DNA from: Escherichia coli
Lineage (GTDB): Bacteria > Pseudomonadota > Gammaproteobacteria > Enterobacterales > Enterobacteriaceae
Strand: one strand, 5' to 3'
Assembly: GCF_003334385.1 (NCBI RefSeq)
Contig: NZ_QOWN01000001.1
Length of the DNA: 64,000 bases
The position numbers and the translations under genes are program-made. Each line of letters starts with the position of its first letter. Position 1 is the stretch's first letter. This document shows positions 10,876 to 28,768 of this stretch, piece by piece. The notes beneath the pieces are model-generated. The model was not told the origin of the DNA. It did no database searches and was given only the letters and a program-made list of their open reading frames with translations.

Positions 10876-11165
10876 GGTTCTCTCCCTAAAAATCTGTCTG
10901 GCAGGGTAGCGATTTGTGCGCATTGTCACGATTGAGATTTTTTAAGGGGAGGGGAAATTGATAACTTGTAGTTATGTGAAATCGCTATTTTCTGTAGCAG
11001 AGATGCATTCTTCTGACTTCTTGTCTGAGAAAATGCATAAGAAAAAATAGGTTAAAACTGAGGGGGGAAAAGAAAGGTGCAATATTTAGCCATTGTGTTC
11101 ACTGCACCTGGACCTTGGCTTACGCATCGGGTGTCTCAATCAACAAAAAGAGTTTTTAGTTTCTG

Positions 11166-11990
11166 CTATTTCTTCTCTGTAATTTTTACACTGTTTTCCA
11201 ACTGCTTGATGCTGACCTGCGGGGTCGGCAACTCCTCAGGCATGGTTCCGCCAAGTTCCTGAATGGTTTGCCTCACCTTGCGACCCACGTCAAAGTGTGT
11301 GGTGTTTGCTTGCTGTTTTGAATTCACGCCATCCCGCTTGAGTTTTTCTTCTGTTTGGGTAGCTCGAAAGAGATTAGCCGCCAGTTCTGTTGAACCCATA
11401 TGATCCAGGATCTTCTGATTCTTTTTCAGCCCCTTCCGCTGATGAATAGCTTTCTGATCTAATCCACCATACAGCCCCTGGTAACCATGATTCTGAAATA
11501 TGGCGAAATCAGTAGCTGTCGCTACCCCAGCTTGCTGTGCTGCCTCAACCAATTGTTTGTTATGTTCTTTCAACTCATTTCTCAGAAACAGACGCTTTTC
11601 GTCTTCACGAAGTTGCTTAAATGCTTCATCGTCAGCAAGCTCCTGCCGTCGGGTCTGGATAGCAAAATAAGTCTGCCCTGCCGCAATGACCGGTTTCGCA
11701 GGGTCGCCGTTTTGTACTACCAGGTAACAGGCATAGCGGGAGAGTACGATGTCTTTTAATGCTCTTTTGGCATTTGAGCCAATTTTGACCATATCGAGGA
11801 TCTCCTCGAAATGGTCATCAATTGTGTGACCACTGTTCTCACAGGCTTCTTTGGCGCGCGTTAATACAGGTATAAAGTGACGATACTCTGAATAACCCAG
11901 TAGTTTCCCAAGTTGTCTTGCTGACCATTGTTCTGCTCCGTTTGCATTAATCAGTTTTATCTCTTCAAAAGGTTGATGATGTTCGTTCAT
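11166..11990 (-). CDS. dinD: DNA damage-inducible protein DinD
   Basis: ORF track frame 11166..12002; start at MNEHHQPFEEIKLINANG (274 aa); LexA box sits just upstream. Confidence 0.88.
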   Translation of the reverse strand: MNEHHQPFEEIKLINANGAEQWSARQLGKLLGYSEYRHFIPVLTRAKEACENSGHTIDDHFEEILDMVKIGSNAKRALKDIVLSRYACYLVVQNGDPAKPVIAAGQTYFAIQTRRQELADDEAFKQLREDEKRLFLRNELKEHNKQLVEAAQQAGVATATDFAIFQNHGYQGLYGGLDQKAIHQRKGLKKNQKILDHMGSTELAANLFRATQTEEKLKRDGVNSKQQANTTHFDVGRKVRQTIQELGGTMPEELPTPQVSIKQLENSVKITEKK

Positions 11991-12035
11991 TGCCCACTCC
12001 ATGTGATATCAATTGCAAAGAAAGTAAATCTGTAA

Positions 12036-12051
12036 CTGTATTTATATACAG
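12036..12051. promoter_or_regulatory. LexA operator (SOS box) in the dinD promoter
   Basis: Palindrome CTGTATTTATATACAG matching CTGT-N8-ACAG, about 45 bp upstream of the dinD start. Confidence 0.8.
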
Positions 12052-12210
12052 TTGTGAGTATCTCACGTTCTCAGTGTGCTGGGCAAAAAAACATCGCAAA
12101 ATCTGGAGCAGGCACGCAAAACAGAATTGAATGTTGCGGGGAAGAAAAATGCCGCTCTGTTTGAGTGGCGGCATTTGTGAAGGCGGAAAAGTAAGAATTG
12201 GCGTTACGAG

Positions 12211-13074
12211 TTATTCGATGTTCTGAATCTGCTCGCGCATCTGCTCAATCAACACTTTCAGCTCGATGGCGGAGTTTGTCACTTCGGCATTGATAGACTT
12301 CGACGCAAGAGTGTTCGACTCGCGGTTGAACTCCTGCATCATAAAATCCAGACGACGACCAACCGCTTCTTTTTTCTTCAGAATGTTGTAGGTCTCTTTG
12401 ACATGCGCTTCGAGGCGATCCAGTTCTTCGGCAACGTCAATTCGTTGTGCCAGCAGAACCAGTTCCTGCTCCAGACGGTTGTTTTCCAGTTGCACCTGAG
12501 CATCTTCCAGCTTCGCGACCAGACGCTCACGCTGCCATTGCAGGATTTCCGGCATATGGGAGCGGACTTTGACCACTTCGGCGGTGACGCCTTCCAGACG
12601 CTGCTCGATCAATGCTTTCAGTGCCTGACCTTCGGTTTCGCGCGCGACAATAAAGTCGTCCAGCGTACCATCCAGCGCCGCGAGAATTTCAGCGGCAATG
12701 GCGTCAAGATCCTGCTCCTGGGCTGCCATCACGCCCGGCCAGCGTAGAATATCAACCGGGTTGATTTCCCCTTCGTCACTCTGCATTTTTACCCAGTTCG
12801 CGGCAGTTACCAGCTGTTTAGCCAGTTTTTCGTTGAGGATCAGCTCACCTTGCGCGCTAACATCTGGCTCATAGCGCAGGGTACATTCCACTTTACCGCG
12901 CGTCAGGCGAGAACGAATACGCTCGCGAACGACAGGTTCAAGGCTACGGAACTGCTCCGGCAGACGAAAGTAAGTTTCCAGATAACGCTGGTTTACCGAG
13001 CGCATTTCCCAGGTTGCGCTCCCCCATTCACCCTTGATTTCACGCCGGGCGTAGGCGGTCATACTGCGGATCAT
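12211..13074 (-). CDS. yicC: UPF0701 protein YicC
   Basis: 287-aa ORF recognised as YicC. Confidence 0.9.
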   Translation of the reverse strand: MIRSMTAYARREIKGEWGSATWEMRSVNQRYLETYFRLPEQFRSLEPVVRERIRSRLTRGKVECTLRYEPDVSAQGELILNEKLAKQLVTAANWVKMQSDEGEINPVDILRWPGVMAAQEQDLDAIAAEILAALDGTLDDFIVARETEGQALKALIEQRLEGVTAEVVKVRSHMPEILQWQRERLVAKLEDAQVQLENNRLEQELVLLAQRIDVAEELDRLEAHVKETYNILKKKEAVGRRLDFMMQEFNRESNTLASKSINAEVTNSAIELKVLIEQMREQIQNIE

Positions 13075-13200
13075 AGACGTTCCTGTTTATAAAAGGAGAG
13101 GTGGAAGGATTATAGCCATCGATGCCTTGTCAGGATAGGAATAACCGCCGGAAGTCCGTATAATGCGCAGCCACATTTGTTTCAAGCCGGAGATTTCAAT

Positions 13201-13917
13201 ATGCGTCCAGCAGGCCGTAGCAATAATCAGGTGCGTCCCGTTACCCTGACTCGTAACTATACAAAACATGCAGAAGGCTCGGTGCTGGTCGAATTTGGCG
13301 ATACCAAAGTGTTGTGTACCGCCTCTATTGAAGAAGGCGTGCCGCGCTTCCTGAAAGGTCAGGGCCAGGGCTGGATCACCGCAGAGTACGGCATGCTGCC
13401 ACGTTCTACCCACACCCGTAACGCTCGTGAAGCGGCGAAAGGTAAGCAGGGTGGACGCACAATGGAAATCCAGCGTCTGATCGCCCGTGCTCTTCGCGCG
13501 GCAGTAGATTTGAAAGCGCTGGGTGAGTTCACCATTACGCTGGACTGCGACGTGCTTCAGGCTGATGGTGGCACGCGTACCGCGTCGATTACGGGTGCCT
13601 GCGTGGCGCTGGTAGATGCGCTACAGAAGCTGGTGGAAAACGGCAAGCTGAAAACCAATCCGATGAAAGGGATGGTAGCCGCAGTTTCTGTCGGAATTGT
13701 GAACGGCGAAGCGGTTTGCGATCTGGAATACGTTGAAGACTCTGCCGCAGAGACCGACATGAACGTAGTGATGACCGAAGACGGGCGCATCATTGAAGTG
13801 CAGGGGACGGCAGAAGGCGAGCCGTTCACCCATGAAGAGCTACTCACCTTGTTGGCTCTGGCCCGAGGGGGAATCGAATCCATTGTAGCGACGCAGAAGG
13901 CGGCGCTGGCAAACTGA
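13201..13917 (+). CDS. rph: Ribonuclease PH, full-length (rph+)
   Basis: ORF track frame from 13177; start at ATG 13201 ([20 protein letters not shown]...), 238 aa ending ...[14 protein letters not shown]; stop TGA 13915-13917 immediately before the attenuator hairpin. Confidence 0.93.
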
Positions 13918-25613: not shown

Positions 25614-26693
25614 ATGAAAATAGCGTTTATCGGCGAAGCTGTTTCTGGATTTGGCGGCATGGAAACTGTCATCCGTGATGTTATTACTACCTTCAGGCAA
25701 CAACATATCCAAAGTGAAATGTTTTTCTTTTGTCGTAATGACAAAATGGATAAGGGATGGCTGGAAGGTATTAAATACTCATGTTCATTTTCCAATATTC
25801 GTTTAGGTTTTTTGCGTCGGGCGAAACATATTCATGCTCTAAGTAAATGGCTTCAGGAGTACCAACCAGATATCGTTATTTGTATTGATGTGATCTCCTG
25901 CCTGTTTGCCGCAAAAGCACGTAAAAAATCAGGAATTGATATGCCAGTATTTTCATGGCCACATTTTTCTTTAGATCACAAAAAACATGCTGAATATATC
26001 ACCTGTGCCGACTATCATTTAGCAATCAGCTCTGGCATTAAACAGCAAATGATTAATCGAGGTGTAGCAGAATCGACGATAAATGTTATTTTTAATCCCG
26101 TCGAAACTAAAGACTCAGTCATTCCCGCGCCCGAGGAAGGTGAAACGGCAACGTTTATTTATGTTGGGCGTATGAAATTTGAAGGCCAGAAAAGAGTTAA
26201 AGACCTGCTTGATGGCTTATCACAAGCGAAAGGTAACTGGAAACTCCATGTATTGGGTGATGGCTCCGATTTCGAAAAATGCCAGGCTTATGGTAGAGAA
26301 TTAAATATTGATGATCGAATTGTCTGGTATGGTTGGCAACAATATCCCTGGGAATTGGTCCAGCAAGATATTGAAAAAGTGAGTGCGTTATTGCTCACGT
26401 CATCTTTTGAAGGTTTCCCAATGACCCTACTTGAAGCCTTGTCGTGGGGGATTCCTTGTATCAGTGCCGATTGTGTCTCCGGGCCTGCTGACATTATTCA
26501 ACCTGATGTCAATGGCCATCTGTATCAACCGGGAGATATTGCTGGTTTTGTAACTCTTCTAAATAAATATATAGCAGGTGAAATTCATATCGAACATGAA
26601 AAAATTCCTGCGTCGATCGATGAATTTTACCAATCGAAGTATTACGATAGATTACATAAGGTAATTATTTCTGCTATTTCCCGGAGGAAATAA
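25614..26693 (+). CDS. waaB: LPS core alpha-1,6-galactosyltransferase
   Basis: ORF track frame from 25584; start at internal Met MKIAFIGEAVSGFGGMETV (359 aa). Confidence 0.9.
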   Translation: MKIAFIGEAVSGFGGMETVIRDVITTFRQQHIQSEMFFFCRNDKMDKGWLEGIKYSCSFSNIRLGFLRRAKHIHALSKWLQEYQPDIVICIDVISCLFAAKARKKSGIDMPVFSWPHFSLDHKKHAEYITCADYHLAISSGIKQQMINRGVAESTINVIFNPVETKDSVIPAPEEGETATFIYVGRMKFEGQKRVKDLLDGLSQAKGNWKLHVLGDGSDFEKCQAYGRELNIDDRIVWYGWQQYPWELVQQDIEKVSALLLTSSFEGFPMTLLEALSWGIPCISADCVSGPADIIQPDVNGHLYQPGDIAGFVTLLNKYIAGEIHIEHEKIPASIDEFYQSKYYDRLHKVIISAISRRK

Positions 26694-27712
26694 TGCAGCA
26701 GGTGTTTTTCCAGGAAACTGAGTTTCTTAATTCAGTTATTGATTATGATCATAAAGTAGAAACAGAAAATCTTTGTCTGGACATCGCTTATGGAACTGAC
26801 AAAAACTTTCTATTTGGTTGCGGAATTTCGATTGCTTCAATATTAAAATATAATGAAGGAAGTCGATTGTGTTTCCATATTTTTACTGATTATTTTGGTG
26901 ATGATGATCGTAAGTATTTTGATGCCCTGGCGTTGCAGTATAAAACCAGAATTAAAATATATCTGATTAATGGTGATCGACTGCGCTCATTGCCTAGCAC
27001 TAAGAATTGGACTCATGCAATATATTTTCGTTTTGTTATTGCAGATTACTTTATTAATAAGGCGCCTAAAGTCCTTTATCTGGATGCAGATATCATTTGT
27101 CAGGGGACTATTGAGCCACTAATTAATTTCTCATTTCCTGACGATAAAGTCGCAATGGTTGTTACAGAAGGGCAAGCTGACTGGTGGGAAAAACGCGCCC
27201 ATTCGTTAGGTGTTGCGGGAATTGCTAAAGGTTACTTTAACTCCGGTTTTTTATTGATTAATACTGCCCAATGGGCGGCTCAGCAGGTTTCTGCACGAGC
27301 TATTGCAATGCTAAATGAGCCAGAAATAATCAAAAAAATAACACATCCTGATCAGGATGTGTTAAATATGTTGCTGGCGGATAAACTTATTTTCGCTGAT
27401 ATTAAATATAACACCCAGTTCAGCTTAAATTATCAACTCAAAGAAAGCTTTATAAACCCAGTAACCAACGATACTATTTTTATCCATTATATCGGGCCAA
27501 CCAAGCCCTGGCATGATTGGGCCTGGGATTATCCTGTATCACAAGCCTTTATGGAGGCAAAAAATGCTTCGCCATGGAAGAATACGGCGTTGCTGAAACC
27601 GAACAATAGCAATCAATTAAGATATAGCGCAAAACATATGCTTAAAAAGCATAGATATCTAAAAGGATTTAGCAACTATCTTTTTTATTTTATTGAAAAG
27701 ATAAAGCATTAA
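26693..27712 (+). CDS. waaO: LPS core alpha-1,3-glucosyltransferase (GT8 family)
   Basis: 339-aa ORF; start shares a base with waaB stop. Confidence 0.9.
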   Translation: MQQVFFQETEFLNSVIDYDHKVETENLCLDIAYGTDKNFLFGCGISIASILKYNEGSRLCFHIFTDYFGDDDRKYFDALALQYKTRIKIYLINGDRLRSLPSTKNWTHAIYFRFVIADYFINKAPKVLYLDADIICQGTIEPLINFSFPDDKVAMVVTEGQADWWEKRAHSLGVAGIAKGYFNSGFLLINTAQWAAQQVSARAIAMLNEPEIIKKITHPDQDVLNMLLADKLIFADIKYNTQFSLNYQLKESFINPVTNDTIFIHYIGPTKPWHDWAWDYPVSQAFMEAKNASPWKNTALLKPNNSNQLRYSAKHMLKKHRYLKGFSNYLFYFIEKIKH

Positions 27713-27751
27713 AACTGGGAAACTATAAAGTAATGATATAAGGGTAGCATT

Positions 27752-28768
27752 GTGGACTCATTTCCTGCCATAGAGATAGATAAAGTTAAAGCCTGGGATT
27801 TTCGGCTAGCTAATATAAATACTTCTGAATGTTTAAATGTTGCCTATGGTGTCGATGCTAATTATCTTGATGGTGTAGGTGTTTCCATCACATCAATTGT
27901 CCTAAATAATCGACATATTAATCTTGATTTTTATATTATTGCTGATGTTTATAATGATGGTTTTTTTCAAAAAATTGCAAAGCTTGCAGAGCAAAACCAA
28001 TTAAGAATCACGTTATATAGAATTAACACTGATAAGCTCCAGTGCTTGCCTTGTACACAGGTCTGGTCAAGAGCAATGTACTTCCGTTTATTTGCATTTC
28101 AATTATTGGGTTTAACGCTTGATCGTTTGCTTTATCTTGATGCAGATGTTGTTTGTAAAGGCGATATTAGCCAACTATTACATCTGGGTTTAAATGGAGC
28201 GGTTGCTGCTGTTGTTAAAGATGTTGAGCCAATGCAAGAAAAGGCGGTATCCAGGTTGTCTGATCCTGAATTACTTGGGCAGTACTTTAATTCCGGTGTC
28301 GTTTATTTAGACTTAAAAAAATGGGCTGACGCAAAACTAACAGAAAAAGCGTTGTCTATTCTTATGAGTAAAGATAATGTTTATAAATACCCTGATCAGG
28401 ATGTTATGAATGTCTTACTGAAAGGGATGACATTATTTTTGCCTCGTGAGTACAATACAATTTATACAATTAAAAGTGAATTAAAAGACAAAACACATCA
28501 AAACTATAAAAAGCTGATTACAGAAAGTACTCTTCTTATTCATTATACAGGTGCAACTAAACCGTGGCACAAATGGGCAATTTATCCATCGGTAAAATAC
28601 TATAAAATAGCTTTAGAAAATTCCCCCTGGAAAGATGACTCTCCACGAGATGCGAAATCAATTATTGAATTTAAAAAAAGATATAAACATCTTTTAGTGC
28701 AACATCATTATATCTCAGGAATTATAGCAGGAGTCTGTTATCTTTGCCGAAAATATTACCGTAAATAA
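27752..28768 (+). CDS. waaJ: LPS core alpha-1,2-glucosyltransferase (GT8 family)
   Basis: 338-aa ORF from GTG (MDSFPAIEIDKVKAWDF...); paralogous to waaO. Confidence 0.9.
   Translation: MDSFPAIEIDKVKAWDFRLANINTSECLNVAYGVDANYLDGVGVSITSIVLNNRHINLDFYIIADVYNDGFFQKIAKLAEQNQLRITLYRINTDKLQCLPCTQVWSRAMYFRLFAFQLLGLTLDRLLYLDADVVCKGDISQLLHLGLNGAVAAVVKDVEPMQEKAVSRLSDPELLGQYFNSGVVYLDLKKWADAKLTEKALSILMSKDNVYKYPDQDVMNVLLKGMTLFLPREYNTIYTIKSELKDKTHQNYKKLITESTLLIHYTGATKPWHKWAIYPSVKYYKIALENSPWKDDSPRDAKSIIEFKKRYKHLLVQHHYISGIIAGVCYLCRKYYRK

Follow-up and report, generated by a model that had tools for sequence, protein, structure and literature searches.

The 20-mer at positions 12034-12053 of the window (i.e., the whole stretch of 64,000 nucleotides of Escherichia coli DNA that was analysed) is almost certainly the LexA operator (SOS box) of dinD. 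On the dinD strand, i.e., the minus strand, it reads AACTGTATATAAATACAGTT. This box is already known and nothing new is added here to SOS biology; it is a sound positive control, in that a reader having only the sequence can recognise a strong SOS box.

The 16-nt core CTGT-N8-ACAG, CTGTATTTATATACAG, is localized at 12036-12051 and is the sole CTGT-N8-ACAG in the 64 kb. The core plus its flanks gives the 20-mer AACTGTATTTATATACAGTT (12034-12053), self-complementary at 18 of its 20 positions. The arms of the box, AACTGTAT and ATACAGTT, are 8 nt each, 100% complementary and separated by a gap of 4 nt; the spacing of the inverted half-sites CTGT and ACAG is exactly 8 nt, as in gammaproteobacterial LexA operators. 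The intergenic region between dinD and yicC contains just two inverted repeats, i.e., this box and a hairpin near yicC. The sequence-only reading had placed a near-consensus palindromic LexA box at 12036-12051: the sequence is indeed present there and is identical to the published dinD operator. This operator, ACAACTGTATATAAATACAGTTACA (PMC3009722 Table 4), corresponds exactly, as reverse complement, to window positions 12031-12055. The comparison with the SOS box of E. coli K-12 dinD (pcsA) thus gives the same 25 nt in front of the same gene, an unchanged distance to the start and an HI (heterology index, see below) equal within rounding; there is no difference, and the window carries that very site.

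The HI was calculated with the Berg-von Hippel/Lewis formula, i.e., the sum over positions of ln[(n_consensus + 0.5)/(n_observed + 0.5)], using a matrix built from 18 LexA operators of E. coli that are given in PMC3009722 Table 4. The HI of the dinD site is 2.14 with all 18 operators in the matrix and 2.95 with dinD excluded; the published value is 2.2 (PMC11228462 Table 1). Set against the known SOS boxes, a comparison that had been proposed from the sequence, the site is the published dinD entry itself and comes 5th of the 18 operators by HI. With the same 18-operator matrix, recA has an HI of 5.2 (all 18) or 7.4 (leave-one-out), polB and dinG an HI of 8.5-9.3 (all 18) or 12.6-12.8 (leave-one-out). 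Functional LexA sites have HI values up to about 13-15: just those loci whose HI is <14 are tabulated in PMC11228462 and the criterion used in PMC11002266 is <15. An HI above the functional range had been named as the argument against a LexA box; 2.14 and 2.95 are below this cut-off by a wide margin. For all 127,962 20-mers of the window the mean HI is 36.0 (sd 5.7), and the best value after the dinD box is 10.07.

The same calculations bear on the possibility that the site is a chance AT-rich palindrome in AT-rich intergenic DNA (e.g., part of a -10-like stretch), without LexA function. Taken by itself, the bare 4+4 core does not reach significance in 64 kb (one occurrence vs. 0.59 expected; at least one in 48 of 100 shuffles), the intergenic region has just 43% G+C, and most dinD homologues have no such box. 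The full dinD site, however, is highly significant vs. chance. The 20-nt consensus TACTGTATATATATACAGTA, with up to 3 mismatches, has a single match in the window (the dinD box) vs. 0.00 expected from shuffles. The number of 20-mers with HI ≤2.95 expected in the window, on both strands, is 1.3e-4 (exact convolution, base composition of the window) and falls to 7.5e-7 for the 208-nt intergenic region, calculated with the composition of that region. Moreover, the site is the published operator (PMC3009722), and LexA-dependent induction of dinD is in print (PMC11228462, PMC3009722). A chance palindrome has therefore practically no probability left.

The second-best LexA-like 20-mer of the window is TACTTTATAGTTTCCCAGTT (27713-27732, minus strand, HI 10.07). 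It is flanked by two plus-strand ORFs (26693-27712 and 27752-28768) that are 39 nt apart. This site is probably non-functional since one half-site is CTTT and not CTGT, and since about 0.5 equally good sites are expected by chance.

Among known operators, the closest in character to the dinD box are those of umuDC and sbmC (TACTGTATATAAAAACAGTA), tisB/istR-2 and recN: all have CTGT-N8-ACAG with an A/T spacer, and their HI values, like that of dinD, are in the same lowest band (0.3-2.4, 18-operator matrix). All are among the most strongly induced SOS genes (PMC11228462). The differences concern the outermost positions, which are A and T in dinD (AACTG...CAGTT) vs. T and A in the umuDC/sbmC-type operators (TACTG...CAGTA), and the spacer, with AAAT in the dinD box vs. 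AAAA in the umuDC/sbmC-type operators.

The published data on E. coli dinD agree with LexA control. The gene is induced 9.8-fold by AZT and its expression drops 12-fold in a non-cleavable lexA3 background (PMC11228462); LexA dependence was confirmed by RT-qPCR in lexA(Def) and lexA3 mutants (PMC3009722). With ciprofloxacin, the log2 fold change of the dinD transcript reaches 4.5 and the log2 value of DinD protein activation ('signalomics') reaches 5.8 (PMC11002266). A 2019 review lists dinD among the genes with a known SOS box (PMC6590174), and in PMC4457935 DinD is cited as a RecA-filament regulator (Uranga et al. 2011). The support for the dinD site is its sequence quality together with the published E. 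coli experiments, and not cross-species conservation, because the box is absent upstream of most homologues in other genera. LexA binding at dinD was also reportedly described by Lewis et al. in 1994 and by Wade et al. in 2005. The literature search, which did not reach the primary binding studies, found neither a mapped dinD transcription start nor a LexA footprint.

A query of 1.1 kb around the box is 100% identical to E. coli ER1709 (K-12-type). According to the RefSeq annotation of this identical sequence, the gene order is ligB (+), yicG (-), dinD (-), yicC (-) and rph (+), and the dinD coding sequence (274 aa) spans 11166-11990 on the minus strand. DinD matches the NCBIfam equivalog NF008573 (DNA damage-inducible protein D) over residues 1-274 with E 8e-147 and 488 bits vs. 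a cut-off of 242; residues 10-105 correspond to the Pfam Bro-N domain. A Shine-Dalgarno sequence, GGAG (11997-12000, minus strand), precedes by 6 nt the ATG at 11990. The distance from the edge of the box to this RefSeq ATG is 45 nt, i.e., the value of about 45 bp that had been read from the sequence. An alternative in-frame ATG at 12002, which is 33 nt from the box, was considered as the dinD start and is unlikely: GGAG at 11997-12000 is well spaced for 11990, and in Pectobacterium an in-frame TGA comes after the equivalent upstream ATG. The CATGGAGTG motif is common to E. coli and Pectobacterium, and since in the latter it is followed by this stop it is conserved as a ribosome-binding site and not as coding sequence. 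The box had been proposed as an internal control of the annotation, and it serves as such: the window is E. coli, and the minus strand for dinD and the start at 11990 are right.

A strict promoter/terminator scan of 11900-12300 gave no promoter and no terminator, so that an overlap of operator and promoter is only inferred, from a relaxed hexamer scan. On the dinD strand, this relaxed scan gave one good candidate, TTGCCC-18-GATACT, with a TG at the extended -10 position; the other hits are neighbouring registers of the TTGCCC -35 and a weak GAGATA-18-TACAGT. The candidate extended -10, TGaGATACT, is localized at 12057-12065 on the minus strand (hexamer 12062-12057, TG 12065-12064), and the candidate -35, TTGCCC, at 12081-12086 on the same strand, 18 nt upstream of the candidate -10. 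The -35 is invariant in the seven aligned E. coli alleles (7/7), the -10 in 6/7 (GACACT in the remaining one). From this geometry, the transcription start zone is predicted 5-9 nt downstream of the candidate -10, i.e., at 12049-12053 on the minus strand. The candidate promoter would thus put +1 within the LexA box and the box itself at about -3 to +17, a position in which LexA would occlude the region needed by RNA polymerase.

A different geometry of the LexA operator was weighed against the same scan, namely a -10 inside the spacer of the box (TATAAA or TAAATA), with LexA competing for the -10. The spacer of the dinD box does hold -10-like hexamers, the strict scan endorsed no promoter at all, and in Citrobacter, where only 25 nt separate the box from the start codon, the spacer also contains a hexamer, TAAAAA, that reads as -10-like. 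However, the spacer hexamers lack an acceptable -35 at 15-19 nt upstream, and the relaxed scan gave only TTGCCC-18-GATACT (with its neighbouring registers) and the weak GAGATA-18-TACAGT. A -10 in the spacer is the less probable arrangement, though it keeps an appreciable chance.

The control of dinD by this operator is best explained as follows. In the undamaged cell, a LexA dimer would sit on both CTGT/ACAG half-sites at 12034-12053 and block RNA polymerase at the dinD promoter, directly upstream of the box and probably overlapping it. Upon DNA damage, RecA filaments on single-stranded DNA would lead to self-cleavage of LexA and the operator would be vacated. The freed operator would allow dinD to be transcribed leftward (minus strand), from a start probably within or just beside the box. 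Because the site is near consensus (HI about 2-3), repression of the dinD promoter should rank with the tightest, and its induction with the strongest, in the SOS regulon. Repression would occur by occlusion of the -10/+1 region; this mode is only inferred, as are the promoter hexamers and the transcription start from which it is deduced.

Upstream of the candidate promoter, a terminator-like hairpin followed by UUUUUCUU is found downstream of yicC (12139-12176, minus strand; arms 12147-12155 and 12168-12176). It has a 9-bp stem, and the RNA fold of the minus-strand RNA has an energy of -12.2 kcal/mol (z = -2.4). The simple terminator scan missed it because its loop limit is 3-8 nt vs. 12 nt between the arms. 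This hairpin is probably the yicC terminator; it would then insulate the dinD promoter from yicC read-through.

As the box is palindromic it has no intrinsic direction, and it could be a genuine LexA site with another transcript as main target, i.e., a plus-strand or antisense RNA or a small intergenic ORF. PGAP indeed annotates small hypothetical ORFs close to the box, in strain B on the plus strand and also in E2348/69, as well as under the match in LB14b. The small 'hypothetical protein' ORFs correspond to window positions 12054-12194 (+) for strain B and about 12071-12331 (-) for E2348/69. Nevertheless, they are not conserved, and they look spurious because strain B and the window differ by an indel that shifts the plus-strand frame. 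There is no Rfam family at the locus (no match at E ≤1 for window positions 11000-13200), and the nearest plus-strand gene, rph, is more than 1.1 kb off, beyond yicC. Above all, LexA dependence was shown for dinD itself (PMC11228462, PMC3009722). Another main target is thus very improbable, and dinD is kept as the target of the box.

Within E. coli, seven aligned alleles were compared, six of them intact. Both half-sites are preserved in the intact alleles (6/6). A single T-to-C substitution in the spacer, giving AACTGTATATAAACACAGTT and an HI of 3.32, is present in the box of the divergent allele, that of E2348/69, CS5L and strain 746. Over the 120 nt that precede the ATG, this allele and that of K-12 differ by about 8 substitutions, of which about 1 is in the 20-mer vs. 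1.3 expected; thus the substitutions in these 120 nt give no statistical signal of an extra constraint on the box within E. coli. The 60-nt box region is found at ≥99% identity in 3421 genomes, at 95-99% in 301 and at 90-95% in 726. In strain 24AR0180, an ISKox3 element (ISL3-like) is inserted inside the LexA box after AACTGTATATAA (about 12040-12041) and dinD is cut off from its promoter.

The 1.1 kb dinD query has a match in 4757 of the 5426 complete E. coli genomes, i.e., about 12% have none. In strain fS25a, yicG is directly followed by yicC with a spacer of 251 nt (L086:3750-4000). The alignment indicates that about 11100-12207 is missing in this strain (dinD, promoter, box and hairpin), a short unrelated stretch being present instead. 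This segment of about 1.1 kb (11100-12207) has a left boundary uncertain by about 50-75 nt. The G+C content is 46% for dinD and 43% for the intergenic region vs. 53-54% for yicG and yicC. Since the segment is missing in fS25a and has a low G+C content, the box belongs to inserted DNA and not to the ancestral intergenic DNA. In other words, dinD and its box form an accessory cassette of E. coli.

In other species, a scan with one genome per species gave 142 loci encoding DinD relatives, of which the best 80 (L006-L085, Escherichia absent) were analysed. In these best 80 of 142, the proteins are 62-83% identical, including in distant groups such as Chlamydiota, Campylobacterota, Bacillota and Spirochaetota. 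Such an identity across very distant phyla points to a horizontal spread of DinD under strong constraint. The 250 nt upstream of each homologue were scanned for boxes with a dinD-free matrix, the rest of the locus being used as control. Using this matrix, which is made of E. coli operators and is inapplicable to phyla with other LexA motifs, a strong LexA-type box was found only at two Citrobacter loci and none in the other 78 of the best 80 loci. The box is CACTGTAAAAACATCCAGTA for the first one (L020:1444-1463, HI 5.2) and CACTGTAAAAATATCCAGTA for the second (L023, HI 4.6), both 25 nt from the start. Even the closest homologues among the best 80 of 142 have no strong box upstream: Pectobacterium (83%), Yersinia (81%) and Xenorhabdus (80%). 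Sites with HI 12.0 occur upstream at three Photorhabdus loci and one Undibacterium locus; they are background because the control windows reach HI 9.5. The sequence-only reading had considered the box as expected for a damage-inducible gene: this is true in E. coli, but it does not extend to the DinD family, as 78 of these 80 homologous loci are without a strong box. Among the species sampled, LexA control of dinD appears specific to Escherichia and Citrobacter.

The Citrobacter homologues (75-76% identical to DinD) resemble E. coli dinD in that a strong gammaproteobacterial LexA motif is directly upstream. On the contrary, the gene is at another chromosomal site, downstream of two ibpA/ibpB-like ORFs (read from the translated C-terminus alone), the right arm of the box is CCAG vs. 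ACAG in E. coli, the distance from box to start is 25 nt vs. 45 nt, and the homology of the upstream region to that of E. coli is weak. The literature search found no experimental work on the Citrobacter dinD boxes. Phylogenetic footprinting across genera gave no support because the upstream regions are not alignable (mean column identity 44%). In local alignments with shuffle controls, the upstream similarity is significant only around the ribosome-binding site; in Citrobacter, there is a modest signal over the candidate -35 region (z = 4.5). A homologous 'proto-box' at the corresponding position in Pectobacterium, AACATTCAGTAAATCCAGCG, suggested by a MAFFT alignment, was dropped since significant similarity is restricted to the ribosome-binding site, plus the modest Citrobacter signal.

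Firmicute-type LexA boxes (GAAC-N4-GTTC) were found in one case only in the Bacillota loci, Sporosarcina highlanderae (L079). There, a perfect Cheo-type core, GAACGTATGTTC, is found upstream of the dinD homologue at about 96 nt; the intergenic region is a divergent one, with the gene of an apparent membrane protein on its other side. It may reflect an independent recruitment into the SOS regulon or chance.

Outside E. coli, DinD homologues are often found within type I restriction-modification operons. In PADLOC, DinD is matched over its full length by the candidate defence family PDC-S13 (E 2e-121); a second match is to the N-terminal part of the 717-position 'type I specificity subunit' model. 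Among the best 80 of 142 loci, a type I methyltransferase gene (hsdM) is found within 1.5 kb at 25, being upstream on the same strand at 16; a specificity-subunit gene (hsdS) is near the homologue at 14, and hsdM plus hsdS at 12. The family assignment was confirmed for five neighbours. The arrangement hsdM-dinD-hsdS is observed at loci L026, L033, L035, L044, L061, L062, L065, L066, L076, L080, L081 and L085. All the Enterobacterales copies in the sample (best 80 of 142) are orphans, i.e., without hsdM or hsdS neighbours. An hsdS-dinD fusion was noted in Bibersteinia trehalosi (PMC4996451).

These observations allow a tentative reading, given somewhat less than even credence, in which dinD belongs to a mobile gene family that usually resides in a type I restriction-modification operon (hsdM-dinD-hsdS; PDC-S13), SOS control having been added in particular lineages. 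An orphan copy would have inserted into the yicG-yicC interval of Escherichia and, in Citrobacter, at a site downstream of the ibpAB-like ORFs, and these copies would have come under LexA either independently or by carrying their promoter along. If this is true, the reported inhibition of RecA filaments by DinD might descend from a restriction-related or anti-phage role. LexA control limited to two genera within a widespread restriction-modification-associated family is a modest lead; together with the cassette status and the type I restriction-modification context, it may interest those who study the recruitment of defence genes into host stress regulons.

Two observations concern the surroundings of the box. 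Near the 3' end of dinD, the 16-nt CAACTGCTTGATGCTG is present at about 11210-11230 of the window; it is the stretch over which tisAB RNA was reported to be complementary to dinD mRNA at its 3' end, but a tisAB-dependent degradation of dinD mRNA could not be demonstrated (PMC2577331). Beyond yicC, the rph ORF (13177-13917) is full length and ends with ...ATQKAALAN, and many wild E. coli strains share the rph-pyrE stretch (901 nt) at 100% identity. The rph-1 frameshift is present in MG1655 and W3110; the full-length rph thus means that the window does not come from MG1655 or W3110, despite its K-12-like dinD region.
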